Assembly (NCBI GenBank): GCA_964383535.1
Contig: CAYLHS010000002.1
Location: 4,555-68,554 of the forward strand
From: an uncultured Acidimicrobiia bacterium
GTDB taxonomy: Bacteria; Actinomycetota; Acidimicrobiia; Spongiisociales; UBA4744
Reading direction: 5' to 3'
Length of the DNA stretch: 64,000 nucleotides
Shown here: piece after piece, positions 21,707 through 44,882 of the stretch
Position numbering within the stretch: position 1 is the first letter of the stretch
Layout of the letters: each line of letters begins with the position of its first letter
Made by a program: the position numbers and the translations under genes
Notes under the pieces: model-generated
Databases searched by the model: none
Told to the model about the DNA's origin: nothing
What the model saw: the letters and a program-made list of their open reading frames with translations, nothing else

Positions 21707-22972
21707 CTAGCTCGCTGAGGGGACTACGACCCGCCCAAAGAACAGCAGCGCCCCGGTCTCCGTATCGCGAAGCGCGAAGATGAACGGCCGGTCGATGTCG
21801 AGGGTCACGTCGACCATTGGTGCCGACGTCGCCCGCATGACGACTGCGGTCGCTGCCGCCGCCTCGGTCCCGTTCTCGTCGACGGCGATGTACGCCTCGT
21901 GAATCACCTCGTCGACGAGCAGCTTCTCTACGGTGGTCATGCCGGAGAAGTCGGCGCTGGTTGGATCAAACGCAGTCGGCATCCCGAGCGAGGTCAGCGC
22001 CGGCCTCAGCTGAGCCTGTGTACGGAAGGTGAACTTGGGAACCGTCAACCCCATGGAGGTGGACGACAGCCCGGATACCGCCTCGCTCAAGAGACCGGAT
22101 CCGAGTTCCCGTTCCACGTCGGTGAACCGCCCTTCGTCGGGAACGATCAGAAGCATCGCCAGCGTGTCACCGGAGTACGGAAGCTGAACCGCCTGCCAGC
22201 CATCTCCGTTTGCATAGTCGAATGAGGACGTCTGATGCATCATGGGCACCGTCAGTTCCGTCCCCGCGAGGGTCGTGAACGACCCGTCGGCGGTGTCGTT
22301 GGGATCGAACTGGTGTGCCCACGTGGCGTTTAGGTACACGGCGTTGACGAGTACGAGCCGGGTCAGCTCGTTGAGAGCTCCCGCGGGGATGAGATCGGTG
22401 ATCTTGTCATTGGTCCGGGACGCCACCCACTCGTTGATCTGAATCCGAGCTCTTTCGGCGCCGGTCTTGAAGTCGACCAGCCGCATCCCGGTCCCATAGT
22501 CCTCGGCAAGGAGATCGAGGAATGGTGCTTCGAACGTCAGCCCATCCTGACCCCACAGCGAGTTGGCGAAGCTCAGCTCAACCCGATCATCCCCGCTCTT
22601 GAAGCTCCTCGACTCGAGGATCTGGTCGAGCGCGTTCATCGCGGAGTGGAACGCGGGGTCTTCGAGGTCTATGTGCAGCACGGCGGCCATCTCAGCGGCC
22701 GTTACACCCCGAGCCCCCGCGTAGGTCATGGCGAGTGCGGTCATGATGCTCGCCGGTGAGAACACGACGTTTCCGCTCCCGGTCGAGAGGACCGTGTACA
22801 GGTCGGTTCCGAACGACTCCATGCTCGAAGCAGCGTTCTCTACATCGCTGGAAGGCGCGTGCGCGGCGGCCCTCTGCGCGTCCGACATCGCCATCGCAAC
22901 CGGCGGCTCAGCTGCACAGGCGCCCGCGATCAACATCCCTACGAGACTCACTATGACGGCTTTGAAGGACAC
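21707..22972 (-). CDS. Secreted serpin (serine protease inhibitor)
   Basis: NAVYLNATW motif. Hinge GTEAAAATAVV and shutter FIFALRD. AGGAGG RBS 6 nt before a GTG start. Signal peptide with an ACA-AEPP cleavage site. Confidence 0.8.
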   Translation of the reverse strand: MSFKAVIVSLVGMLIAGACAAEPPVAMAMSDAQRAAAHAPSSDVENAASSMESFGTDLYTVLSTGSGNVVFSPASIMTALAMTYAGARGVTAAEMAAVLHIDLEDPAFHSAMNALDQILESRSFKSGDDRVELSFANSLWGQDGLTFEAPFLDLLAEDYGTGMRLVDFKTGAERARIQINEWVASRTNDKITDLIPAGALNELTRLVLVNAVYLNATWAHQFDPNDTADGSFTTLAGTELTVPMMHQTSSFDYANGDGWQAVQLPYSGDTLAMLLIVPDEGRFTDVERELGSGLLSEAVSGLSSTSMGLTVPKFTFRTQAQLRPALTSLGMPTAFDPTSADFSGMTTVEKLLVDEVIHEAYIAVDENGTEAAAATAVVMRATSAPMVDVTLDIDRPFIFALRDTETGALLFFGRVVVPSAS

Positions 22973-23166
22973 AGCAACCTCCTCGCCGCTTAGACGGCAA
23001 CGACGCCGTGGAGGTTCCCGTGCAGCCGGGCTCCGCCCGGCGTACATCGTATCTCGCACGCGACCTGATCGGGCCCACAGGCCTTGGCTGCGGCGCCAAC
23101 CTCGGCGCGTTCCCCTGCCGCACCACCCGATACGAAGTACCAGTACGGGATACTGCCCGGCGAGTC

Positions 23167-23649
23167 TCAGTCGCCTCTGAGCGCGCTCAGTCCTCCTGCG
23201 ATCACCAGCGCCGTGCCAACCAGGAGTACGAAGAATCCGAATCCCGCGCTCACGGCATACGCGGTTGGAATCAGTCCTCCGGCGTATGCCTGCGCCATCC
23301 CGGTTTGCAGCGTGTCGGCCGTGTCGAACGCATCGATCATCTTGACCACTGTGTAGGCGAGCAACGCAGTGCCGATCACGGCGGTGGTCAATGAGGCGTT
23401 CTTGCTCATGGCCTTGGAGACGGGACCCATGAGCGCAAGCACGACGACCACGACGAGGAGCACCACGAGCACGATCTGCGCCCACGTATCCAGCCCACCC
23501 CAAATGGTCGGAATGCCGGCCGGGAACGTGGGGTCGGCCTGGTGCAGGTTGGGAAGGAGCGATTCACCTGCCGTCCTGAGCGCTTTCATGAAGAGCCCGA
23601 TGACGCCGATGATCACTCCTCCGAGTATGAACAGTCGACCGGTATGCAT
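23167..23649 (-). CDS. Small membrane protein, hypothetical (4 TM)
   Basis: Hydrophobic helices. No recognised family. Confidence 0.45.
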   Translation of the reverse strand: MHTGRLFILGGVIIGVIGLFMKALRTAGESLLPNLHQADPTFPAGIPTIWGGLDTWAQIVLVVLLVVVVVLALMGPVSKAMSKNASLTTAVIGTALLAYTVVKMIDAFDTADTLQTGMAQAYAGGLIPTAYAVSAGFGFFVLLVGTALVIAGGLSALRGD

Positions 23650-32133: not shown

Positions 32134-33351
32134 ATGTCATCGACATGGCCACTGGTAGCCGTCCTCGTCGTGGCGTTCCTCGGGGCGATGTTCTTGGCAG
32201 CGTCCGAGACCGCCCTGCTTCGCATCAGCAAGGCACGGGCCTCCATGCTCCGCCACCAGAGCGGCCGTCGGGGGGTCAGGCTCGCCGTGCTGATCGGCGA
32301 TCTTCCACGCGTGCTCAACACCATCCTCCTGCTCGAACTCCTGGCACAGATCGCGTCCGCGACCGTGACTGGAATGCTCGCCGCGCAGTGGTTCGGATCG
32401 GTAGGGGTGACGGTCGCATCGATCGTGCTCACGATGCTGCTCTTCGTCTACGCGGAGGCAATTCCGAAGACATTCGCGGTCCGGCACGCGGACAGGGTTG
32501 CCCTTCGGGTCGCGTCGGCCGTCTCTTTGCTCGCCGCACTGATGAGACCGATCGTGTCGGTGCTGGTGTGGGTGGCGGATCTCCAGGCTCCCGGAAAGGG
32601 CATCGCGGCGTCACCAACGATCACCGAGCACGAGCTTCGGTGGCTCGCACGGAGCGCGGCCGCCGAAGGTGAGATCGACGTGACCGACAGGGAGATGATC
32701 GAACGGGCGTTTCGATTCGGTGATCGAAGGGCCGACGACATCATGGTTCCCAGGACCGACATCGTTGGAGTCCCCTCGGCCAGCACCATCGAGCAGGCGA
32801 TCCACGTCGCCATCGAGTCGGGACACAGACACCTGCTCGTGTACCAGGGGACCCTCGATGACATCCTCGGTGTCGTGTCGCTGCGTGTCCTCGTAGCCGT
32901 ACCGGCGGACCGCCGAGCCATCACCGTCGATCATCTGTTGTCGCGCCCTCTGACCGTCCCCAGGTCGAAGCACATCACTGCCCTTCTGCGCGAGATGCAG
33001 TCCGATGGGACACACCTCGCAGTCGTGATCGATGAGTATGGGGGAACGGCCGGGCTGGTCACGATCGAGGATATCGCCGAGGAGCTGATCGGCTCGGTCA
33101 CCCAAGACGAGCTGATTCGAACCGGCGACTCGACATGGTCGGTGGCCGGCCTCCTTCCTGCGGAAGACCTCAGGGATGCGTTGGGTGCAGATCTTCCAGA
33201 CGGCGACTGGAACACAGTGGGCGGACTCGTTGTCGGGCTCCTCGAACGACTCCCCCGTCTGGGTGATGAAGTGACCGCAGCGGGCTATCGGTTCCGAATC
33301 ACGTCGATGCGTGGACACCGTATCCACCGCATCGAGGTGACCGCGGTATGA
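32134..33351 (+). CDS. CNNM/HlyC-CorC family protein (DUF21 + CBS pair + CorC_HlyC transporter-associated domain)
   Basis: N-terminal 4-TM DUF21. Two CBS domains. C-terminal CorC_HlyC domain. Confidence 0.8.
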   Translation: MSSTWPLVAVLVVAFLGAMFLAASETALLRISKARASMLRHQSGRRGVRLAVLIGDLPRVLNTILLLELLAQIASATVTGMLAAQWFGSVGVTVASIVLTMLLFVYAEAIPKTFAVRHADRVALRVASAVSLLAALMRPIVSVLVWVADLQAPGKGIAASPTITEHELRWLARSAAAEGEIDVTDREMIERAFRFGDRRADDIMVPRTDIVGVPSASTIEQAIHVAIESGHRHLLVYQGTLDDILGVVSLRVLVAVPADRRAITVDHLLSRPLTVPRSKHITALLREMQSDGTHLAVVIDEYGGTAGLVTIEDIAEELIGSVTQDELIRTGDSTWSVAGLLPAEDLRDALGADLPDGDWNTVGGLVVGLLERLPRLGDEVTAAGYRFRITSMRGHRIHRIEVTAV

Positions 33352-33354
33352 GCG

Positions 33355-34482
33355 TCAGTATCTGAGGACGGCTGCAGCGACTGTTCCTTCCGGCGCGCCG
33401 AGGTACACCGAGCCTCCGTGGCGCCACGTCTCGACAACCGACATATCCACAAGATCTCGATCGCCAGGCCGATAGGCCTCGTGCTGGGCAACCAAGCCCT
33501 CTGCGGCGGTTCCCCACACCGTGACTGCGGGGTCGACGAACAGGCTGGCAACACGACCGTCTCGCGCCGCGCGCACCACTCCTTCGATGGTTCGTTCGGC
33601 CGGGGCGGCTCCGCTCGCGAGGGTCAGCCGTACAGCATCCCTCTCCCTGTCGAAGAAGGAACCGGCGATCTGCCACGCACGCGCTCGCAGCCCTTCGTCT
33701 CGAACGACGTCCGGGTTGCCCACGACCTCACCCTCGAGTATCAGCGGATGCCGGCTCGCCGCCCGGTAGATGGGCAGAAGGTACTCGACACCGGCGAGCA
33801 CGAGCGGGACGTCCGGCTCGATCAACGCGGCAACCCCTCGGTCGATCGTTCTGAAGAATCGATCGAGGCGCCTGTCGTCAGTTTCCTTGCCCATGCCCTG
33901 GCCGTGGAAGATCGCCGTCGGACTCCCGCGACCACTCACCCCCGACTGATGAAACTGAAGCTGGCGTTCGAGGTCTTCGTGTTGCAGCACTTCAGACATG
34001 CTGGTCGGAAGCCCTCCGACATCGATCTCGCCGACCTCGAACCTCGTTGCCCAGAGGAGTCGCACCCGATGTCGACTGAGCGCGAGCACATAGACTCGCG
34101 CACCGCTGCTGATCACCTCGAGGAGCGGCTTGACGTGGAAACCGTCACCAACGGTCACACGCTCCTCGAAAGAAACCGGCAGCCGAAACGTGTGGAGCTG
34201 GTCGGCCGACAAGAACGCCGCAAGCCCGTCGCCCTGATGCTGCCAGAACGCCGAGTCAGCAATCAGATCGACAATCGGCTTCAAGAGCCGATCTGCTTCA
34301 GGTCCTCTCTTGCCCGTTTCCTCGACGAGCATCCTGCGCGCTTCTCTGGCGAGGTTCTTCATGCGGATCGGATCCTGCTGGATCTCGGGCCCGGCCCGAT
34401 GAGTTGGCAAGTAGATGGAGATCGCCGGGGAGGCTCTCACATCGACGAGGGTCCCGAAACTCTCGCGGCTCACGACGTCCAT
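33355..34482 (-). CDS. eRF1/Pelota-like (baeRF-type) protein with HGQG motif; function unknown
   Basis: 376 aa. GAAGGGAG RBS. FHGQGMGKE loop resembling the release-factor GGQ motif. Divergent from an RsiV-like lipoprotein. Confidence 0.5.
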   Translation of the reverse strand: MDVVSRESFGTLVDVRASPAISIYLPTHRAGPEIQQDPIRMKNLAREARRMLVEETGKRGPEADRLLKPIVDLIADSAFWQHQGDGLAAFLSADQLHTFRLPVSFEERVTVGDGFHVKPLLEVISSGARVYVLALSRHRVRLLWATRFEVGEIDVGGLPTSMSEVLQHEDLERQLQFHQSGVSGRGSPTAIFHGQGMGKETDDRRLDRFFRTIDRGVAALIEPDVPLVLAGVEYLLPIYRAASRHPLILEGEVVGNPDVVRDEGLRARAWQIAGSFFDRERDAVRLTLASGAAPAERTIEGVVRAARDGRVASLFVDPAVTVWGTAAEGLVAQHEAYRPGDRDLVDMSVVETWRHGGSVYLGAPEGTVAAAVLRY

Positions 34483-34539
34483 GGATCTCCCTTCGCGGGC
34501 CACCACCTCCAAACCTACACGTGGCGATACAGTGGAGGG

Positions 34540-35328
34540 ATGCGACGCCTCATCCTCATCGCAGTCGTTGTCGCGACGGGTTGCACCGTCAGCCCCTCTT
34601 CGACGACCCTGCCGAACTCTGCCCCGACAACGACGTCGACGACAACCCCCGCGACCACGACCAGCACGACGTCGATGCCCACCACCACGACCACGACCGC
34701 GACCCAACCAACGACAACCACCGCGCCGGCACCGGATGTCCTCACACAGACTCGATCCGACGAATCGGCGACCTTCCAGCTGACCGTGAACTCCCCCATC
34801 GTCGAGCATGTCGACAAAGCCGCTCAGATCAACGAACGGATCGCACAGACGATCGGCGAGACCGTTGACGCATTCCTCGTTCAAGCGGCGCGGACGGGCG
34901 TGGAAAACGTCGCTGGCCCCCATCAGCTCCACGTCTCCTATCGGACGGGCACGGTGACTCCTACCCTGTTGAGCCTGGAAATCGACGTCTCCACATACAT
35001 CTCCGGAGCGGCACATCCCTCCGAGACGGTCTCCGCCTTGACGTTCATCGACGGAAACCAGACCAGCGTCTCGGACCACATCACCAACACCGATGAGGTT
35101 GCCAATGCACTCGCGACCTCGATCGCCCAGCAGTTCGGAGGCACCCCTGTCGAAGTCATCGACGCCGTAGGCGGAGCTGATCAGCTTCTCGAGCTTGCCA
35201 ACTTCCTCGTCACGGACGGCGGGGTCATCGCCTTGTTCGACCAGTATGCAGTGGCTCCCGGCGCTGCCGGCATCGTGCGAGTGATGATCCCGTTCGACCA
35301 ACTCACCCTCTCCGGGTGGCCCTCCTGA
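34540..35328 (+). CDS. Lipoprotein with Thr/Ser/Pro-rich linker and RsiV-like DUF4163/DUF3298 domains
   Basis: MRRLILIAVVVATGCT lipobox. About 50-aa TTTST low-complexity linker. C-terminal FDQYAVAPGAAG motif typical of DUF3298. Confidence 0.6.
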   Translation: MRRLILIAVVVATGCTVSPSSTTLPNSAPTTTSTTTPATTTSTTSMPTTTTTTATQPTTTTAPAPDVLTQTRSDESATFQLTVNSPIVEHVDKAAQINERIAQTIGETVDAFLVQAARTGVENVAGPHQLHVSYRTGTVTPTLLSLEIDVSTYISGAAHPSETVSALTFIDGNQTSVSDHITNTDEVANALATSIAQQFGGTPVEVIDAVGGADQLLELANFLVTDGGVIALFDQYAVAPGAAGIVRVMIPFDQLTLSGWPS

Positions 35329-35355
35329 CAAGGACCGGCGGTATCCTCAGCTACC

Positions 35356-37080
35356 GTGAGACAAGCCCTGATGGCAACCTTGCTCGTCGTTGCCACGGCG
35401 TGCACCCCCGTATCAACGGCGGGCACCGCCACCTCACGTGCGAGCACGTCTACGACATCGACGACCTCGACTCCGACGTCCACCACTTCCGCGCCGACCA
35501 CGACCGTCCTACCAACAACCACGACCGCCCCACCAACAACCGCGACGATCGCCCCACCAAGCGGGGGCAACTGGGACGATCGGGTCTTCTACGAGATCTT
35601 CGTACGGTCGTTCATGGATTCGGACGGCGACGGCATCGGGGACTTCAACGGCATCACCTCGAAGCTCGACTACCTCAACGACGGCGATCCTTCCACGACA
35701 ACCGACCTCGGGGTCACCGGCATCTGGCTGATGCCGATCTTCGTATCACCGTCGTACCACGGGTACGACGTGATCGACTACACAGACGTGAACCCGGACT
35801 ACGGCACGCTCGACGATCTGCGGAATCTGGTGAATGAGGCGCACAAAAGGGGCATCGCCGTCATCCTCGACTTCCCCATCAATCACACGTCGCAATACAA
35901 CCCGTGGTTTCAGAAGTCGCAGGCGGGCGACGCTGAGTACACGGATTGGTACATCTGGTCCGATACCGACCCCGGAACCCGCGGACCGTGGGGCGAAAAG
36001 GTGTGGTACCGGACCGGCGACCACTACTACTTCGCCTTGTTCGCCTCGAACATGCCCGACCTGAACCTCCGGAACGACGACGTGACCAGCGAGCTGTACG
36101 ACATCGCAGACTTCTGGCTTGCCCTCGGTGTCGACGGATTCCGGCTCGATGCGGCCCAACACCTCATCGAGGACGGCTCCATCATGGAGAACACACCCGA
36201 GACCAAGCAATGGCTCGCTGCGTTCGATGAACACATCCACGAGGTAGCCCCTGACTCATTCATCATCGGCGAAGTATGGAACTCGACCGATGTGTCCGCT
36301 TCGTACGTCCCCGAATCCGTCGACTCGACATTCGAGTTCGACCTGTCGGACGCCTGGCTCCAGGCAGCGAAGGACGGCCATGCGCCTCCATTCGACGAGG
36401 CTCTGGCCACCGCCCTCGCCGACTACCCCGTCGATTCGTTCGGCACGTTTCTGACGAATCACGACATGAACCGAGTCATGAGCCAGCTCGCCGCGAACAT
36501 CGACCTGGCCGAGCTGTCGGCAACATGGCTCCTGACCGGTCCCGGCATCCCGTTTCTCTACTACGGCGAGGAGGTAGGCCTCCGAGGCATCAAGCCGGAT
36601 CCACAGATCCGCACGCCGATGCCGTGGACGTCCGAGAAAGGACGGGTCGGATTCACCACGGGAGTGCCGTGGGAGCTCCCCTGGACCGGGTACGACACGT
36701 TCAACGTCGCTGATGAGACCGGTGATCCCGACTCCCTGCTCAGCACGTACCGAACGCTGATCCACTTGCGTGAAGCCACACCTGCCCTTGACCACGGCAC
36801 CACGATGCTGGTGGAGGCCGGCTCCGAGCATCTCGTCTCCTATCTTCGATCAGAGGGAACCGGCCATGTGCTCGTCGTCCTCAACTTGTCGAAGGATCCC
36901 GTCTCGGACTACGGGCTGACGCTCACATCAGGACCACTTGCCGACGCGGTGAAGACCGAGTCCCTGGTCGGACCGAACGCCTCGACGCCGGAAGTGACCG
37001 ACGGTGGATTCAATGGATACAGGCCCGTCGGGAGCGTGGCAGGCTACGGCAGGTTGGTGATCGATCTCAGCGATCGGTGA
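35356..37080 (+). CDS. GH13 alpha-amylase family lipoprotein (alpha-glucosidase/trehalose synthase-like)
   Basis: Lipobox VVATACT plus Thr/Ser/Pro linker. GH13 regions I-IV (DFPINH, GFRLDAAQH, EVWN, FLTNHD). Confidence 0.85.
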   Translation: MRQALMATLLVVATACTPVSTAGTATSRASTSTTSTTSTPTSTTSAPTTTVLPTTTTAPPTTATIAPPSGGNWDDRVFYEIFVRSFMDSDGDGIGDFNGITSKLDYLNDGDPSTTTDLGVTGIWLMPIFVSPSYHGYDVIDYTDVNPDYGTLDDLRNLVNEAHKRGIAVILDFPINHTSQYNPWFQKSQAGDAEYTDWYIWSDTDPGTRGPWGEKVWYRTGDHYYFALFASNMPDLNLRNDDVTSELYDIADFWLALGVDGFRLDAAQHLIEDGSIMENTPETKQWLAAFDEHIHEVAPDSFIIGEVWNSTDVSASYVPESVDSTFEFDLSDAWLQAAKDGHAPPFDEALATALADYPVDSFGTFLTNHDMNRVMSQLAANIDLAELSATWLLTGPGIPFLYYGEEVGLRGIKPDPQIRTPMPWTSEKGRVGFTTGVPWELPWTGYDTFNVADETGDPDSLLSTYRTLIHLREATPALDHGTTMLVEAGSEHLVSYLRSEGTGHVLVVLNLSKDPVSDYGLTLTSGPLADAVKTESLVGPNASTPEVTDGGFNGYRPVGSVAGYGRLVIDLSDR

Positions 37081-37852
37081 ACTCGGCAATCACGGGTGCG
37101 TGGTCGCTCGGCTTGCCTTCACCGGCCGTCGGTCTGCGCTCGTTTCGGTCGACCCGCACCTCGGTGCAGCGGTGGGCGAGTGACAGTGTGCCGAGGATGA
37201 GATCGATGCGCAGGCCGAGGCCCCGATGGAAGGCTCCTCCCCTGTAGTCCCACCAGGTGAACGGACCGTTCTGGTCGTCGTGGATGCGTAGGAGATCGAC
37301 GAACCCCCAGTCCATCATGGCTCTCAGGCGTCTGCGCTCCGCTTCGGAATGGTGCACCTGGCCGGATAGGAGCTCCGGATCGTAGACGTCCCGGTCGTCA
37401 GGGGTGATGTTGAAGTCCCCGGCGATAACGACGTTGCCACCGGGATCGAACGTCTCGGCGATCCACCTTTGGAGCGCCTCGAGCCACGCCAGCTTGACCT
37501 CGTACATCGGATCAGAGAGGTCGCGTCCATTGACGACATACGCGCTGATAGTCGTCAGGTCACCGAAAGTTGCAGCGATGACCCTTGCTTCGTCCGAGAT
37601 CGGGTCATCGGTGAATCCCGTCGTAGTCGCGTCAGGTTCGGCACGCGAGAGGATCGCCACGCCATTGAACGGCGCCTGTCCGTGTGTGACCGCGTGGTAT
37701 CCGGCCGCCTGAATCTCGAGAAACGGAAAGTCGTGGTCGAGGAGTTTGGTCTCTTGCAGTAACAGGAAATCGGGCTGCTCCCGCGCCAGGAGGGCAAGGA
37801 CCCTCGGGAGGCGGGCGCGTAGGGAATTGACATTCCACGTGATGAGCCGCAT
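37067..37852 (-). CDS. xthA: Exodeoxyribonuclease III
   Basis: MRLITWNVNSLRAR N-terminus. EEP fold motifs (QETK, GDFN, SDHAPV). Confidence 0.85.
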   Translation of the reverse strand: MRLITWNVNSLRARLPRVLALLAREQPDFLLLQETKLLDHDFPFLEIQAAGYHAVTHGQAPFNGVAILSRAEPDATTTGFTDDPISDEARVIAATFGDLTTISAYVVNGRDLSDPMYEVKLAWLEALQRWIAETFDPGGNVVIAGDFNITPDDRDVYDPELLSGQVHHSEAERRRLRAMMDWGFVDLLRIHDDQNGPFTWWDYRGGAFHRGLGLRIDLILGTLSLAHRCTEVRVDRNERRPTAGEGKPSDHAPVIAEFTDR

Positions 37853-37997
37853 GAGCAGGAGGGTAGTTGACGGTTGCGTCGGGCCGGACCAGGCAGTATG
37901 CACCTGTCACTTGATGCCAGTCGTCGAGACCGAATGCCTCGGTATTGCCTACTCCTCGCTCTAGGGTTGCCAGTCGAGACCCAAGCAGGTGTGTGTG

Positions 37998-38750
37998 ATG
38001 AGGCGGATGGTGGCCACGGACATGGACGGAACGTTCATCGGCGACGACGACACGATGCACGTACTTTGGGACGACCTCCAAGCCGCCGACATCACCCTCA
38101 CCTTCTCGACCGGTCGCAACATTCCTGCCATCGAGACCTTCTATGCAGACCACGATGAGGATCGCCGCGCGATTGCGTGCGTGTGCATGGTCGGCACGGA
38201 GGTCTGGTTCTTCGACGGCGGCCAGTACCGTCTGGATCCTGGCTGGAGTGACTACATCTCCGAAGCGTGGGACAAGGATGCCGTCGAAGACATCCTGCGC
38301 GAGCTGCCCGGCGCACACATCCAGGAAGCGGAGTGGCAATCTCCCTTCAAGGCCTCGTACTTCCTCGAAGACGACGCCGACGCAGGTCTCGCCCACATCC
38401 AACGGCGCCTCGACGAACTCGGCCTTCGGGCCAAGGTGATCTACTCGGCCGGCAAGTTCCTCGACTTGCTCCCCCACCGATCCGGCAAAGGAGGCGCGGT
38501 TCGCTATCTGGCCGAGCAACTCGGCATGGACCAGGTCGTTGTCGCTGGGGACACCGGCAACGATCTCGACATGATGCGTGCCGATCTCGGCTTCAGCTGC
38601 ATCGCTGTCGGCAACGCCACCGAAGAACTCGCATCGGTCCACGAACCGCAGATCTACCATGCAGACGCACCTTACGCGGCGGGGATTCGCGAGGGATTGG
38701 AGCACTACGGCTGGCTTTCTCCACAAGATGTGGGCAAAGATGGCCGATAG
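37998..38750 (+). CDS. HAD-IIB phosphatase, sucrose-6F-phosphate phosphohydrolase (S6PP)-like
   Basis: DMDGTF motif I. GDTGNDLDM motif IV. Immediately upstream of and overlapping an SPS-like GT4 gene. Confidence 0.7.
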   Translation: MRRMVATDMDGTFIGDDDTMHVLWDDLQAADITLTFSTGRNIPAIETFYADHDEDRRAIACVCMVGTEVWFFDGGQYRLDPGWSDYISEAWDKDAVEDILRELPGAHIQEAEWQSPFKASYFLEDDADAGLAHIQRRLDELGLRAKVIYSAGKFLDLLPHRSGKGGAVRYLAEQLGMDQVVVAGDTGNDLDMMRADLGFSCIAVGNATEELASVHEPQIYHADAPYAAGIREGLEHYGWLSPQDVGKDGR

Positions 38751-40155
38751 GGATTACAGCGTCCAAGGAGAGATCGTGACCGGCGCTTTCGCGGATCCCG
38801 GCCGAACACATGTCCTCATGGTCACCAACCATGGTGTCCATGAATGGAAGGTGATTCCCGGCCTGCCCGACACAGGTGGCCAGAACGTATACGTGAACCA
38901 ATTCAGCGAGGCACTCGTCGCGCAGGGGTACCGAGTGACGATCGTCAACCGCGGCGGCTACCCGAACCCATCGACCGGACGGCCACAGGTGGGCACGAGA
39001 TACCACCCTTCAGGACACGCTCGGATCCTGTACCTGGAAGATGGAGATCCTGAATTCGTCCGCAAGGAAGACATGGCCGAACACATCCCCGCCCTCGTCA
39101 CGGATCTCCAGGCCAAACTCGCGTCAGACGCGGACACCTATCAGTTGATCATCTCCCACTACTGGGATGCCGGAGCCCTCGGCGCAAGCCTCAATCTTCG
39201 GGCAGCGACCCGCGTTCCCCACGTCTGGGTACCGCACTCGCTCGGAGCTCTGAAAAAGCGCAACATGGATCCGTCCACGTGGCACGGGCTTCGCATCGAC
39301 GAGCGGATCCAACACGAAAAGGCGCTGCTCCCGGAGCTCGATGGTGCCGTCGCAACGTCCACCGCCATTCGTGACACCTTCCTCAACGACTACGGGTACA
39401 TGCCGAAGTACCTCTTGCCGCCATGCGTCGACATCGACCGGTACCGCCCCCGCGCCGGGAGCGAGTGCGATCACATCTTCGAGTTCCTCGCTGCGCACTC
39501 CAACCGCACGGCCGCGGAGTTGCGAACCCGCACAATCGTCACCGAGATCAGCCGGACCGATCGCACAAAGCGCAAGGACGTCCTCATCAATGCGTTTGCC
39601 CGGGTTCATGAGCGGTTGCGCGGCGCATTCCTGGTCGTCGCGCTCGATCCGCACGCGGGACCGGCCTACGACGAGGCGGCAGCCCTGATCCATGACCTGC
39701 ATCTCGAGGATGACGTAGCGGTCCTCGGCTCGGTGTGGGAACAGCTCCCGTGTCTGTACGCCGTGACGGCCGTCTACTGCACGCCCTCGGTCATGGAGGG
39801 ATTCGGGATGAGTGCAGAGGAGGCGGCCGCCACCGGTAAACCTGTGATCGCCTCCGACCTTGTTCCCTTCGCTACCGAACACCTGCTGGGCGGGAACCCG
39901 AGCCACGTTCGTTTCGACGGCCTCGCCGACCCGAAGCGTGTTCTGCTCCAGGGCGAAGGCGCGATCGTCGTACCGGCCGACGATGTCGAAGGGTTCGCCC
40001 ACGCTTTGGAAATGCTCCTCAGCAACGACCAGCTCAGAGCTGACATGGGCGACAAGGCACTGGGCATCACCGTTCCCTATTTCACATGGGAACGACGAAC
40101 TCGAGATCTTCTCAACGACCTTGGAGTCACGCCGACCCACAATCCTGCATCGTGA
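38728..40155 (+). CDS. GT4 retaining glycosyltransferase of the sucrose-phosphate synthase/MshA-like clade
   Basis: GLPDTGGQNVYV N-terminal signature. C-terminal GT4 EGFGMS...E motif. Start overlaps the HAD gene. Confidence 0.75.
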   Translation: MWAKMADRDYSVQGEIVTGAFADPGRTHVLMVTNHGVHEWKVIPGLPDTGGQNVYVNQFSEALVAQGYRVTIVNRGGYPNPSTGRPQVGTRYHPSGHARILYLEDGDPEFVRKEDMAEHIPALVTDLQAKLASDADTYQLIISHYWDAGALGASLNLRAATRVPHVWVPHSLGALKKRNMDPSTWHGLRIDERIQHEKALLPELDGAVATSTAIRDTFLNDYGYMPKYLLPPCVDIDRYRPRAGSECDHIFEFLAAHSNRTAAELRTRTIVTEISRTDRTKRKDVLINAFARVHERLRGAFLVVALDPHAGPAYDEAAALIHDLHLEDDVAVLGSVWEQLPCLYAVTAVYCTPSVMEGFGMSAEEAAATGKPVIASDLVPFATEHLLGGNPSHVRFDGLADPKRVLLQGEGAIVVPADDVEGFAHALEMLLSNDQLRADMGDKALGITVPYFTWERRTRDLLNDLGVTPTHNPAS

Positions 40156-41057
40156 CCGATTTCGCCGACACACTCACCAACACCTGGCAGGCTCAGAACG
40201 ATGAGGGGTTCCTCCTGTCCGCCCCGGAAGGCATCGAGGAACGGTCCCTGCCGGATCCGGATGTCGGCGTCACCTACCGACTTCGCTGGATGCCACATAG
40301 GGAAATCCGCTCGGACACCGCCGAACTGGAACGACGCGGGATACTCAACCCCAACCGTCGTGACGAGGACCTGTTTCGCGACCCGCGAGACCCGTCGGGC
40401 CGGCACTGCTTCCTCTGCGCTCAGAACATCGCCGAGTGCAACCCGATGGAGCGGCTCATCCCCGTTCGGCTGGCCGGCCGTGACTATCTGATCGGCGCCA
40501 ACTTCGCCTGGATCGAACAGAACCACTTCACGGTCATGGCAGCAGAACACGTCGACCAAGACTTCACTCCTCACGTTCTCGACGCGATGGTCGACTTGTA
40601 CCGACGTGCAGGCGGGGAGTACCGAGTGCTGTACAACGGAGCGCAGGCCGGAGCGACGATCCCCTGGCATCTTCACTACCAGATCACCACCGAACGCCTT
40701 CCCGTGGAGGACCTGCCGGAGGGGAGCGAAGCCCGCTACCCGGCGGCGCTGCGGCGCGTCCAGGTAGATGGACAAGGAACACTCACCGCGCTCGCCGCGG
40801 TGAACGACTGGATCGCGCCGGACCCTGAGCACCGTCGTGTCAACGTGCTCATCGCCGGCGCGGTCGCCCAGCCGATGGTGCACGTATTCTTCAGGGACCG
40901 TCGCCTTTCGCACGCCACGATCAAGGGCCTGATGGGTGGGTTCGAAATATGTGGTGACCTCATCTACAGCGAGCCTGACAAGCGCACCATCTTCGAGACT
41001 GCCACCGTTGAAACGGCCCGCAACGCGATCGCCGAGGTGCGACCCCCCGAAACATGA
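40152..41057 (+). CDS. HIT-superfamily GalT-like nucleotidyltransferase/phosphorylase (GDP-hexose phosphorylase VTC2/GDPGP1-like, DUF4922)
   Basis: WHLHYQI HxHxQ HIT variant. GTGA start overlapping the GT4 stop. Confidence 0.5.
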   Translation: MTDFADTLTNTWQAQNDEGFLLSAPEGIEERSLPDPDVGVTYRLRWMPHREIRSDTAELERRGILNPNRRDEDLFRDPRDPSGRHCFLCAQNIAECNPMERLIPVRLAGRDYLIGANFAWIEQNHFTVMAAEHVDQDFTPHVLDAMVDLYRRAGGEYRVLYNGAQAGATIPWHLHYQITTERLPVEDLPEGSEARYPAALRRVQVDGQGTLTALAAVNDWIAPDPEHRRVNVLIAGAVAQPMVHVFFRDRRLSHATIKGLMGGFEICGDLIYSEPDKRTIFETATVETARNAIAEVRPPET

Positions 41058-41083
41058 CGCCGGCAGGCCGGCCGGTTCGTGGC

Positions 41084-42370
41084 CTAGTAGCGATCCCTGT
41101 CGTGCAGGCTCCTCGCCTGCTCGAATGTCGCTCGCGTCCTTCTGGCGATACCACGCCAACCGAACATGCGACGGGCGAATCTGGCCCCGGTGATCGAAAG
41201 ACGTTCCTGAAGCTGGGGGTAGCGCAGAGGCATCGACAGCATGACGGCGAACTCACGGGGACGTTTGGGGTCCGCGAACAGCGCATGGGATCCGAAGTCG
41301 AACATCTCCTCGAGACCGCCATGGATGGTCACCACGCACGGCGTCCCACACGCCATCGCTTCGACAGCAGTCATCCCGAACGGTTCATAACGAGATGGCA
41401 AAGCGAACACGGGCGCTGCGCGGTAGTACCTGGGCATATTCTCATCCTCGATGTGCCCGAGCCACCTCACGTGTTCGGTCACATCGATCTCGCCCGCGAG
41501 CGACTTCCACTTGTCGACCCTTCGCTCGTCCGCGCCTGAATTGGCGCCGATCGCCAACTGGAGACGCGCGTCGGGAACCAGCTCGCGCAGCTCTGGCAGT
41601 GCTCGGATCAGCAGGTCATAGCCCTTGTTGGCAGCGGCCCGTCCGACCGTGTACACGTCGTGCTTGCGGAACTTGATCCGGCGGCGAGCAACGGCGATCT
41701 CCGCATGTGTGATCGGGGTATACCGCGACTCGTCGATTCCCGGCGGAATCATCGAGATGTGCGGCGCGGGAACGTCGTAGTCCTCGATCAGCAACTCGAT
41801 CTGCTGGTTGCTCGTCGCGATCACCTGATCGCATCTGCGATAGACGAGGAATTCCTTGCGAATCCGTTCTTCGAACCGGTAGTCCGACTCGATCTTCTGT
41901 GTGTCGCCCTGCATGCCCCGTCGTTTCCACGAGCCGAGCGAGTGGGGGGTGTGGATGTGCGTGATGTCCAGCTCTTCGCCGATCTGTTGTCCGGCGAAAC
42001 CTGCGTCCCAGTAGTGCGAGTTGATGTACTCATAGCTGAGGCCGTGGTCGCGGAGTGTGTCGAGGAATCTGCGGACGAACTCGTCGAGGTGGTCGTGCAT
42101 GTCTTCTTTGCGAATGAAGTCCGGTCCGCCGAATGGGATCCTCCAGACCCGAAGGTGAGGGCCCATGTCGTCGAATTCCGGCTGGTCCTCGAACCTGCGG
42201 GTGACGATGTCCACCGCGTGGCCAAGCTCCACGAGCTGCTTGGCGAGTTCCAGGACGAAGACGACCTGACCACCCGTGTCCGGGAGTCCAAGTTCCGGCG
42301 CCGCAGAGAAGTATCCGTGCAGGGAGAGCATCAGGATTCTCGGAGGGCTGAAACCGGGTATGTGCTCCAT
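41084..42370 (-). CDS. Second GT4 glycosyltransferase of the SPS-like clade
   Basis: GLPDTGGQVVFVLELAKQL signature. EPFGMTAVEAMACGTP GT4 C-terminal motif. Confidence 0.75.
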   Translation of the reverse strand: MEHIPGFSPPRILMLSLHGYFSAAPELGLPDTGGQVVFVLELAKQLVELGHAVDIVTRRFEDQPEFDDMGPHLRVWRIPFGGPDFIRKEDMHDHLDEFVRRFLDTLRDHGLSYEYINSHYWDAGFAGQQIGEELDITHIHTPHSLGSWKRRGMQGDTQKIESDYRFEERIRKEFLVYRRCDQVIATSNQQIELLIEDYDVPAPHISMIPPGIDESRYTPITHAEIAVARRRIKFRKHDVYTVGRAAANKGYDLLIRALPELRELVPDARLQLAIGANSGADERRVDKWKSLAGEIDVTEHVRWLGHIEDENMPRYYRAAPVFALPSRYEPFGMTAVEAMACGTPCVVTIHGGLEEMFDFGSHALFADPKRPREFAVMLSMPLRYPQLQERLSITGARFARRMFGWRGIARRTRATFEQARSLHDRDRY

Positions 42371-43448: not shown

Positions 43449-44882
43449 TCAGGGGCGGCCGCGCCGGGGTCTGGCGGCGCTCACCTTGAGGTTTCGGCCA
43501 TCCAGTGTCGACCCGTTGAGCGCTTCGATCGCCGCCTGAGCAGCGGGGACGGTCATATCGATGAACCCGAACCCCCTGGAGCGGCCGGTTCGCCGGTCGG
43601 TGACGATGGTCGAACCGCTCACTTCGCCGAAGCGGGCGAACATCGCTCGCATCTCATCGGCAGTCGTCCGCCACGGCAGATTCGCAACGTAGAGGCTCAG
43701 ACGATCCTCCCCCTTGGGGGGCAGCATCGAGCCGGTGGGCCGCGTCACCTCCGGCGTCCGCCGCTCGAATCGACCGTTCGGAGCTTCAATTGGGATCCGC
43801 AGACCGAGCTCTCGCTGCATGCGACGCATCGGCGCGCGCTGTGCGCTGGTCACCAGCGTGATAACGGTGCCGGCTGCCCCGGCCCGCGCGGTTCGTCCCG
43901 ACCGATGGACGTAGTCCTTGGCGTCTCCTGGTGGGTCGAAGTGGATGACCGACGCGACGGCATCGATGTGGATCCCTCTCGCTGCGACGTCAGTCGCGAC
44001 AAGGGCCTGGACACGACCGGATGTGAACTCCTGGAGTGCTCTGGTTCGTTGACTCTGCGATCTGCCGCCGTGGAGGGCCACAGCACGGACCCCACACCTG
44101 GCGAGTTGCTTCACGAGCCGGTCGGCACCGTGTCGGGTGCGTGTGAACACGATGGAACGGCCCTGGGCCTCCACGAGATCGGCGGTGTGCTGCACGCGAT
44201 CGTGATGCTGGACCAACCAGAAGTGGTGTTCGGCGTCGATCGCCTCCTCTTCGGTCCCCCCGACTTCGTGAACGATGGGATCGTGCTGGTAGTCGCGGCT
44301 CAGCACGGCGACATCACCGTCGAGCGTCGCCGAGAACAGCAGAGTCTGACGATGCTCGGGCGTTCCGTCCAGGATCCTGCGGACGACCGGAAGAAACCCC
44401 ATGTCGGCCATCCGATCCGCCTCGTCGATCACGGCGATGTCCACGTGTCCGAGATCGACCGTACCCTGGCCGATGAGATCCTCGAGACGTCCCGGGGTGG
44501 CGACGAGGACATCGACACCCCTGCGCAGCGCGTTCCGTTGCGGGCCGTATCCGACCCCGCCATAGACGGCGAAGACATGCCGATCAACGGCCTTGGCGAG
44601 GGGAGACAGCTCTCGCTTGATCTGTTCAGCGAGTTCACGCGTCGGCGCGAGCACGAGCGCCCGTGGACGGTGACGATTCGCTTTGCGGACGTTGGTGAGG
44701 AGTGGGAGACCGAATGCGAGGGTCTTGCCGGACCCTGTCGGTGCCTTGCCAGAGACATCTCGTCCGGCGAGCGCATCTGGGATCGTCGCCGCCTGAACGG
44801 GGAACGTTTCAACGATGTCGCGGTCGGCGAGCACGCTGACGAGTCGGCCAGGCAGGCCGAGTTGATCGAAGTGGGTAGGCAT
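43449..44882 (-). CDS. DEAD-box ATP-dependent RNA helicase with C-terminal RRM domain
   Basis: Q-motif, GSGKT, DEAD and SAT motifs. C-terminal RNP-2 LYVANL and RNP-1 RGFGFIDM. Confidence 0.85.
   Translation of the reverse strand: MPTHFDQLGLPGRLVSVLADRDIVETFPVQAATIPDALAGRDVSGKAPTGSGKTLAFGLPLLTNVRKANRHRPRALVLAPTRELAEQIKRELSPLAKAVDRHVFAVYGGVGYGPQRNALRRGVDVLVATPGRLEDLIGQGTVDLGHVDIAVIDEADRMADMGFLPVVRRILDGTPEHRQTLLFSATLDGDVAVLSRDYQHDPIVHEVGGTEEEAIDAEHHFWLVQHHDRVQHTADLVEAQGRSIVFTRTRHGADRLVKQLARCGVRAVALHGGRSQSQRTRALQEFTSGRVQALVATDVAARGIHIDAVASVIHFDPPGDAKDYVHRSGRTARAGAAGTVITLVTSAQRAPMRRMQRELGLRIPIEAPNGRFERRTPEVTRPTGSMLPPKGEDRLSLYVANLPWRTTADEMRAMFARFGEVSGSTIVTDRRTGRSRGFGFIDMTVPAAQAAIEALNGSTLDGRNLKVSAARPRRGRP

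Follow-up and report, generated by a model that had tools for sequence, protein, structure and literature searches.

Balon, a ribosome hibernation factor from Psychrobacter urativorans (AOC03_06830), was described together with its ribosome complexes in 2024 (Helena-Bueno et al., Nature 2024, PMC10901736; PDB 8RD8/8RDV/8RDW). It shares with its homologues three structural traits, namely absence of the NIKS motif together with an extended N-domain loop at the decoding centre, absence of GGQ, and an insertion in the C-terminal domain that is reported to be larger in mycobacterial homologues. Further features of Balon are a lasso-like loop of the middle domain that wraps A2602, a bL27 trap loop, and mRNA-independent binding to the A site with EF-Tu. 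In all solved complexes this middle-domain loop keeps clear of the catalytic centre, and the nascent chain is not released. A Balon of Synechocystis that shares only 30% identity with that of Psychrobacter was likewise observed on hibernating ribosomes, with different rRNA contacts (preprint 10.64898/2026.07.03.736309; PDB 31TX series). The family itself was defined as baeRF-1 already in 2019 within the aeRF1 superfamily (Burroughs and Aravind 2019, PMC6514570). Most of its loops were found to be poorly conserved, variable in length and devoid of Gln, and for most baeRF-1 families non-catalytic binding to the A site and a link to HPF were predicted. Here, we describe a Balon-like gene in a stretch of 64,000 nucleotides (the window, whose numbering is used throughout) on contig CAYLHS010000002.1 of an uncultured Acidimicrobiia bacterium (assembly GCA_964383535.1). 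Its product of 375 amino acids is a new but unremarkable member of this known family from an uncultured actinobacterium, and probably acts as a Balon-type ribosome hibernation factor. The only point beyond routine annotation is that a large clade missed by the Balon models of NCBI has conserved an FHG[H/Q]G loop.

Family membership and predicted fold

In Pfam the middle domain of the protein (residues 130-310) matches baeRF_family7 (PF18849, 1.8e-35, 122.7 bits at a gathering threshold of 27.2) and baeRF_family3 (PF18845, 1.7e-33, 116.8 bits at 31.5), the latter being also the family of P. urativorans Balon. The top matches in NCBIfam are ribosome hibernation factor models, AOC03_06830 (9e-42) and MSMEG_1130 (1.8e-11). 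A phmmer search of the PDB sequences gives Balon (8rd8_B, 2e-16) and Msmeg1130 (8v9j_z, 0.006) as the sole real matches. Pairwise comparison by BLASTP with P. urativorans Balon yields 26% identity (3e-23), and a profile of the 120 nearest homologues, all of which match the Balon model NF052287 (best 2.5e-56), aligns end to end to Balon residues 2-369 (3.6e-39).

These homologues belong to a clade of thousands of 50%-identity clusters that occurs in Acidimicrobiia, Rubrobacteria, Gemmatimonadota and Chloroflexota; the nearest named relatives come from metagenome-assembled genomes (MAGs) of Acidimicrobiia. After clustering at 50% identity the family comprises 7,589 representatives at E <= 1e-3 and 2,819 at <= 1e-30. 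A plasmid collection contributed 20 weak to moderate homologues, among them one on a Rubrobacter radiotolerans plasmid with an uninformative neighbourhood. Another cultured organism with a homologue is Rubrobacter indicoceani. Balon (8rd8_B) and several Streptomyces and Kitasatospora homologues from this collection are misannotated as "methyl-accepting chemotaxis protein" or "chemotaxis protein", an error that is still propagating.

The strongest identity between the protein and Balon is found in an N-domain block, ISIYLPTHRAGPEIQQDPIRMKN in the former and VSIFVKTHREHPANDQDPIALKN in the latter. Within it T27-N43 aligns without gaps to Balon T-H-R-E-H-P-A-N-D-Q-D-P-I-A-L-K-N, the segment that holds Balon's only HP dipeptide in the decoding-centre loop, and the common pattern can be written S-I-[FY]-x-x-T-H-R-x-x-P-x-x-Q-D-P-I-x-x-K-N. 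From Balon's T23-HREHP-A29 loop the protein retains T27, H28, R29 and P32. In the clade H28, R29, Q36, D37, P38, I39 and N43 are invariant or nearly so, as is T-H-R in total. NIKS is absent from the protein and from all 266 collected homologues.

A structural model was built with AlphaFold2 (AF2) on an alignment of 120 sequences. Its mean predicted local distance difference test score (pLDDT) is 88.8 and its predicted template modelling score (pTM) 0.81, and it is confident except in loop 187-199 (pLDDT <50). The domain order is that of aeRF1 with an N domain, an RNase H-like middle domain and a Pelota/L7Ae-like C domain. In a Foldseek search against the PDB the first five places are taken by Balon chains, those of P. 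urativorans (8rd8/8rdv/8rdw) being followed by Msmeg1130 (8v9j/8v9l), with E-values from 2e-21 to 1e-17; archaeal aRF1 (4af1) ranks sixth and Rv2629 (8v9k, 1.8e-12) seventh. Structures of aRF1, eRF1 and Pelota are matched over the full length with probability 1.00, but TM-scores are 0.60-0.66 for the Balon chains as compared with 0.2-0.4 for the remaining aRF1, eRF1 and Pelota/Dom34 structures. The first-pass annotation, made from the letters of the DNA, had proposed an aeRF1/Pelota-like protein of the baeRF type and suggested a Foldseek comparison. Pfam, the AF2 model and Foldseek bear out this assignment; an eRF1-type fold is present and the best structures are those of Balon. Its further remark that such proteins are poorly characterised and may act in conflict systems is superseded, as the nearest characterised protein is Balon by both sequence and fold, and the PADLOC defence models match neither this protein nor that of the adjoining lipoprotein gene.

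The protein thus compared resembles P. urativorans Balon in length, three-domain architecture, end-to-end alignment and best structural match (TM 0.63-0.66). Like Balon it lacks NIKS and GGQ, its middle domain carries a long disordered loop and its C domain a hairpin, and its sequence ends in ...RY. With the mycobacterial proteins Msmeg1130 and Rv2629 (PDB 8V9J/8V9L/8V9K) it shares actinobacterial origin, the lack of GGQ and NIKS, an ending in ...LR[YW] and the fold (Foldseek E 6e-19 and 2e-12, TM 0.60-0.64), whereas sequence similarity to them is very weak. In contrast with aRF1, eRF1, Pelota and Dom34, which belong to the same superfamily with the same domain order and provide the next-best fold matches (E 1e-13 to 1e-5), it has no NIKS or other stop-codon-reading motif, no GGQ, no Pelota loop A, and about 20 extra residues including a helix between the third middle-domain strand and the loop.

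The hairpin in the C-terminal domain begins with W323 and G324, both invariant in the clade. On the basis of the model and of the clade profile, which puts this stretch on the corresponding C-domain segment of Balon, residues 323-334 are a candidate equivalent of the hairpin insertion in the EF-Tu-binding domain of Balon; a two-strand insert has been described in baeRF-1 families (PMC6514570). The C-terminal ends read ...AAVLRY in the present protein, ...LVTRY in Balon and ...VLRW in Msmeg1130. By eye the LRY strand also resembles the human eRF1 sequence used for comparison.

The middle-domain loop and the probable function

In the AF2 model the middle domain passes through three strands and one helix before residues 179-201, a stretch of 23 residues predicted with low confidence, which precede a long Arg-rich helix carrying R204, R205, R208 and R211. 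From topology and hidden Markov model alignment this loop appears to occupy the place of aeRF1's GGQ loop and Balon's lasso loop. It includes FHGQGMGKE (residues 192-200), which had looked conserved and reminiscent of the catalytic GGQ motif in the first-pass annotation, where it was asked at the same time whether its GQ is invariant. Residue frequencies were determined in two sets, the 120 nearest homologues and 150 representatives clustered at 50% identity. G194 is found in 100% and 95%, G196 in 98% and 88%, and H193 in 96% and 87% of the respective sequences; F192 occurs in 98% of the nearest homologues, and the representatives have F in 73% and Y in 15%. Position 195 is occupied by His in 68% and by Gln in 31% of the nearest set, and by His in 57% and Gln in 28% of the representatives. 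Gln195 is a minority state, and since Gln is not conserved the homologues as a group essentially lack the GQ pair. GGQ is missing in the protein itself, occurs in relatives only sporadically and unaligned, and is conserved nowhere; the patterns GxuQ and GGxSQ were not found either. The catalytic interpretation of the motif is not supported in this form.

Attempts to connect the loop with eRF1 were unproductive. Forced hhalign of the middle domain of the clade against the eRF1 M domain gave nothing, so that H-G-x-G is only a hypothetical remnant of eRF1 H-G-R-G-G-Q. Against residues 84-151 of the human eRF1 sequence used for comparison the profile of the clade gave only a weak match of the N-M linker with a conserved F-H at a probability of 1%. 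The loop length is narrowly distributed, with a mode of 33 residues between Q176 and F210. The clade fits the "no Gln" part of the description in PMC6514570 but not its "unconstrained loop" part.

Gene neighbourhoods were collected by scanning a genome collection with the single protein (7 loci) and metagenomes with an alignment (80 loci). Flanking open reading frames (ORFs) of 96 loci were clustered by all-against-all BLAST and the top clusters annotated with Pfam. No universal neighbour exists among the 96 loci. The commonest one is a universal stress protein (Usp) in approximately 10-12 loci, in 8 of which its gene lies 13-112 bp away in the same orientation. HPF/RaiA (Pfam Ribosomal_S30AE) follows in 6 loci, in 4 of them on the same strand at a distance of 57-148 bp and in 2 more within 2 kb, and PRC-barrel proteins are neighbours in 5 loci. 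The clade members with HPF, Usp and PRC-barrel context have 38-45% identity. One locus from an Acidimicrobiia MAG (L013, 1..8353, 49% identity) is a partner-switching general-stress neighbourhood of the SigB type: genes for CsbD, ferritin/Dps and dodecin lie on one side of the Balon-like gene, a sigma factor and RsbW-like kinases on the other, with genes for STAS and GAF-SpoIIE phosphatase proteins nearby. These neighbourhoods agree with those published for Balon (PMC10901736), in which genes of stress response or hibernation such as RaiA/HPF, Hsp20 and Usp occur, and with the baeRF-HPF link (PMC6514570).

Homology, fold, motifs and clade context together make it probable that the protein is a homologue of Balon with a hibernation role. 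It would represent a three-domain, catalytically inert descendant of archaeal aRF1 that occupies the ribosomal A site independently of mRNA in stress or stationary phase, probably delivered by EF-Tu via its C-terminal domain. The N-domain loop THRxGP...QDPIRxKN would touch the decoding centre. [quoted passage not shown] As outcome ribosomes would be stalled or silenced and at the same time protected.

Several points weigh against this assignment. We identified no experiment on any member of the clade. The equivalog cut-offs are missed, with 143.8 of the required 330 bits for NF052287 and 43.6 of 480 bits for NF052288; even the best E-value in the clade is still too weak for the 330-bit cut-off, and the scores of the clade lie under the cut-offs of all three named Balon families in NCBIfam. 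Because of these scores the clade is to be regarded as a sister group and not as a recognised orthologue. The His of Balon's H27-P28 dipeptide is replaced by Gly in the present protein (G31-P32) and in most clade members, with Pro kept. In the window no RaiA/HPF, Usp or other stress gene stands beside the gene. Finally, the loop has a strongly conserved FHG[H/Q]G and a constrained length; this motif is missing in the characterised Balons, P. urativorans Balon having GDGGSDRS at this place, and contacts at the peptidyl-transferase centre may therefore differ. On the other hand, the finding of the Synechocystis protein on hibernating ribosomes supports retention of function at such divergence, and also variability at the loops.

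Among other explanations a non-catalytic rescue or recycling factor similar to Pelota/Dom34, which would enter the A site of stalled ribosomes for subunit splitting or factor eviction and not for long hibernation, has the same three-domain fold in its favour but appears unlikely. Dom34-like rescue was one of the options of Burroughs and Aravind for baeRF-1 (PMC6514570), and a possible RRF-like or Pelota-like role of Balon was raised for Synechocystis (10.64898/2026.07.03.736309). Pelota structures, however, reach TM-scores of 0.2-0.37 only, far from those of Balon, and the HPF and Usp genes that recur beside those of the clade speak for dormancy. Furthermore, bacteria are not known to have ABCE1, the splitting partner of Pelota, which we count against such a role.

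It is rather unlikely that the clade forms a mechanistically distinct Balon branch in which the conserved loop has a task foreign to the characterised Balons; it might enter the peptidyl-transferase centre and there hydrolyse peptidyl-tRNA or clamp its CCA end. If true, this would mean either bacterial release or rescue factors of the aeRF1 type or a new mode of hibernation.

An active peptidyl-tRNA hydrolase serving release or rescue, with FHG[H/Q]G as a GGQ-like catalytic loop as in the first-pass annotation, could draw on the conservation of G194, H193 and G196 and on the constrained loop length. For bacterial release factors the Gln side chain counts less than the Gly residues and the backbone. 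Conserved and length-constrained loops are moreover tied to catalytically active families in PMC6514570. Yet this explanation seems quite improbable in view of the predominance of His at position 195, the lack of any of the three Gln-containing patterns, the retained nascent chain and the position of the equivalent loop outside the catalytic centre in every solved Balon complex, and the fact that the closest structures are those of Balon and not of aRF1.

Gene limits and genomic surroundings

The positions of the features of the Balon-like gene and its lipoprotein neighbour are compiled in Table 1. The span 33355..35328 treated as one unit by the first-pass annotation is the union of the two genes. 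As an observation the Balon-like gene was confirmed, with the single correction that the length of 376 residues given there had counted in the stop codon. The ribosome binding site was correctly recognised, and the distance of 57 bp between the divergent starts (spacer 34483..34539) proved to be exact.

Table 1. Features of the Balon-like gene and its surroundings in the numbering of the window.
Feature	Position	Strand	Basis or remark
Balon-like gene (baeRF-1 clade, aeRF1 superfamily), 375 aa, ATG to TGA	33355..34482	-	Pfam, NCBIfam, PDB sequence search, profile, AF2 model
Predicted beta-hairpin of C-terminal domain, W323..H334	33481..33516	-	AF2 strands 323-327 and 330-334; profile alignment
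Long flexible middle-domain loop, residues 179-201	33880..33948	-	Before Arg-rich helix 202-220; aligned to Balon loop GDGGSDRSANNEN
F192-H193-G194-Q195-G196, clade signature [FY]-H-G-[HQ]-G	33895..33909	-	Residue frequencies
N-domain motif T27-H-R-A-G-P-E-I-Q-Q-D-P-I-R-M-K-N43	34354..34404	-	Best-conserved block common with P. urativorans Balon
Shine-Dalgarno sequence AAGGGAG	34487..34493	-	4 nt 5' of the ATG; conserved in orthologues
Upstream element GTGTAGGTTTGG	34509..34520	-	Ends ~26 nt before the ATG (its TAGGTT ~29 nt); putative -10 box or operator
DUF4163+DUF3298 lipoprotein gene, MPT64/RsiV fold, 262 aa	34540..35328	+	Pfam, lipobox; context, not part of the system

Over the same 1.9 kb (33355..35331) a minus-strand ORF of 658 aa and a plus-strand ORF of 636 aa are both open. 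The GC contents at the three codon positions (GC1/GC2/GC3) over the baeRF gene are nearly equal, with 0.72/0.47/0.73 for the minus and 0.74/0.46/0.72 for the plus ORF, and GC3 cannot tell the gene from the antisense ORF. The limits of both genes rest therefore on homology, by which alone each of the two overlapping long ORFs is a real gene over part of its length. The N-terminus of the Balon-like protein, MDVVSRESFGTL, agrees with the family consensus MDxLxRxELxxL. The gene is apparently monocistronic: on one side it converges with a CNNM/CorC gene across a gap of 3 bp, on the other it diverges from the lipoprotein gene.

Upstream of it GTGTAGGTTTGG is found, a single exact copy in the whole window that overlaps the region of the divergent lipoprotein promoter. 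It recurs exactly upstream of four orthologues (L001, L009, L010, L016) and with a one-base variant in L008, surrounded by diverged spacers. Conservation and the fit of TAGGTT to a TAnnnT -10 box make it a putative promoter or operator. A sigma-70 promoter scan of 33000..35600 returned no promoter-like site, and a terminator scan of the same region one terminator-like site at chance level.

At its N-terminus the lipoprotein carries a signal peptide with lipobox, MRRLILIAVVVATGC, to which a linker rich in Thr and Pro is joined; its homologues have 258-271 aa. The DUF4163/DUF3298 domains reported for it were found again, DUF3298 clearly (8e-10, 39.9 bits at a cut-off of 24.1) and PdaC/DUF4163 marginally (2.6e-6, 28.9 bits, 0.2 below the cut-off of 29.1). 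This domain pair is shared with RsiV (PDB 5JEN) and MPT64 (PDB 2HHI), and the best sequence matches in the PDB are Mycobacterium tuberculosis MPT64 (0.0028) and RsiV (0.038). The parallel with RsiV does not hold beyond that point, as the protein is without everything that makes RsiV an anti-sigma factor. It has neither a cytoplasmic anti-sigma domain nor a transmembrane helix, no sigV-type sigma factor gene occurs among the flanking genes, and the RsiV model of NCBIfam gives 30.4 of 250 bits over 30 residues only. In contrast to RsiV it is a lipoprotein whose linker is rich in Thr and Pro, and in kind it comes nearer to the secreted, functionally uncharacterised MPT64-like proteins of actinobacteria.

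The pairing of the two genes, which the first-pass annotation had regarded as a possible new combination worth a co-occurrence check, was examined across the 96 loci encoding relatives. Only two related genomes from metagenomes (L008, 61% identity, and L009/L010, 57%) have a lipoprotein homologue next to baeRF, and both share with the window the whole block of CNNM/CorC, baeRF, DUF3298, amylase and exonuclease genes as well as sugar-metabolism genes beyond. The lipoprotein gene is missing at the loci of the closest orthologues (L001, L016 and L017, 67-69% identity), where amylase and baeRF genes are immediate neighbours, and neither L011/L012 (57%) nor any other locus with enough upstream sequence shows the pairing. 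Including the window it amounts to 3 of the 67 loci whose upstream sequence reaches 900 bp or more. Because the entire block is syntenic in both other genomes, adjacency of the two genes carries no extra information; it is lineage-local synteny and not a functional module. The lipoprotein gene is unrelated to the Balon-like gene and belongs more plausibly with the downstream lipoprotein alpha-amylase gene, from which it is separated by 27 bp on the same strand. Both these lipoproteins have long Thr/Pro-rich linkers after the lipobox, the source of spurious "New_glue" matches in Pfam.

A two-gene conflict or quality-control system, with the lipoprotein as sensor of an envelope signal and as regulator of the aeRF1-like protein, is highly improbable: the divergent starts are so close that the promoters must overlap and the arrangement recurs in the two related genomes, but the synteny of the whole block, the loci without the lipoprotein, the missing anti-sigma features and the empty PADLOC search all speak against it, and the proposed link should be dropped.

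The neighbours of the Balon-like gene in the window are CNNM/CBS/CorC, lipoprotein, amylase and modABC genes, with a sugar cluster of sucrose-phosphate type and housekeeping genes in the wider surroundings. By tblastn neither a second paralogue nor HPF or Usp was significantly matched anywhere in the window, and tRNA and Rfam scans of the window found nothing. The sugar cluster (35356..42370) comprises the lipoprotein alpha-amylase, an Exo_endo_phos nuclease, a sucrose-6F-phosphate phosphohydrolase-like protein, two GT4 sucrose-phosphate-synthase-like glycosyltransferases and DUF4922, and most of it is syntenic in L008 and L009. Its product may be a compatible solute. About 9 kb from the Balon-like gene, 43452..44882 (-) encodes a DEAD-box RNA helicase that has RRM_1 (Pfam 3.2e-17) as its C-terminal domain. 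Another gene, 21710..23503 (-), encodes a bacterial serpin (Pfam Serpin 1.8e-107); at the N-terminus it is extended by approximately 225 residues that match nothing in Pfam.

Meaning for the family

Labels such as "hypothetical protein", "baeRF7 domain-containing protein" or the mistaken "chemotaxis protein" are still attached to genes of this kind, which can now be interpreted as coding for probable Balon-type hibernation factors. This helps to annotate uncultured Acidimicrobiia and to understand the preservation of ribosomes in slow-growing environmental bacteria. With their peculiar loop the members of the clade bear also on the question whether the contacts of Balon-like factors on the side of the peptidyl-transferase centre are diverse or shared.

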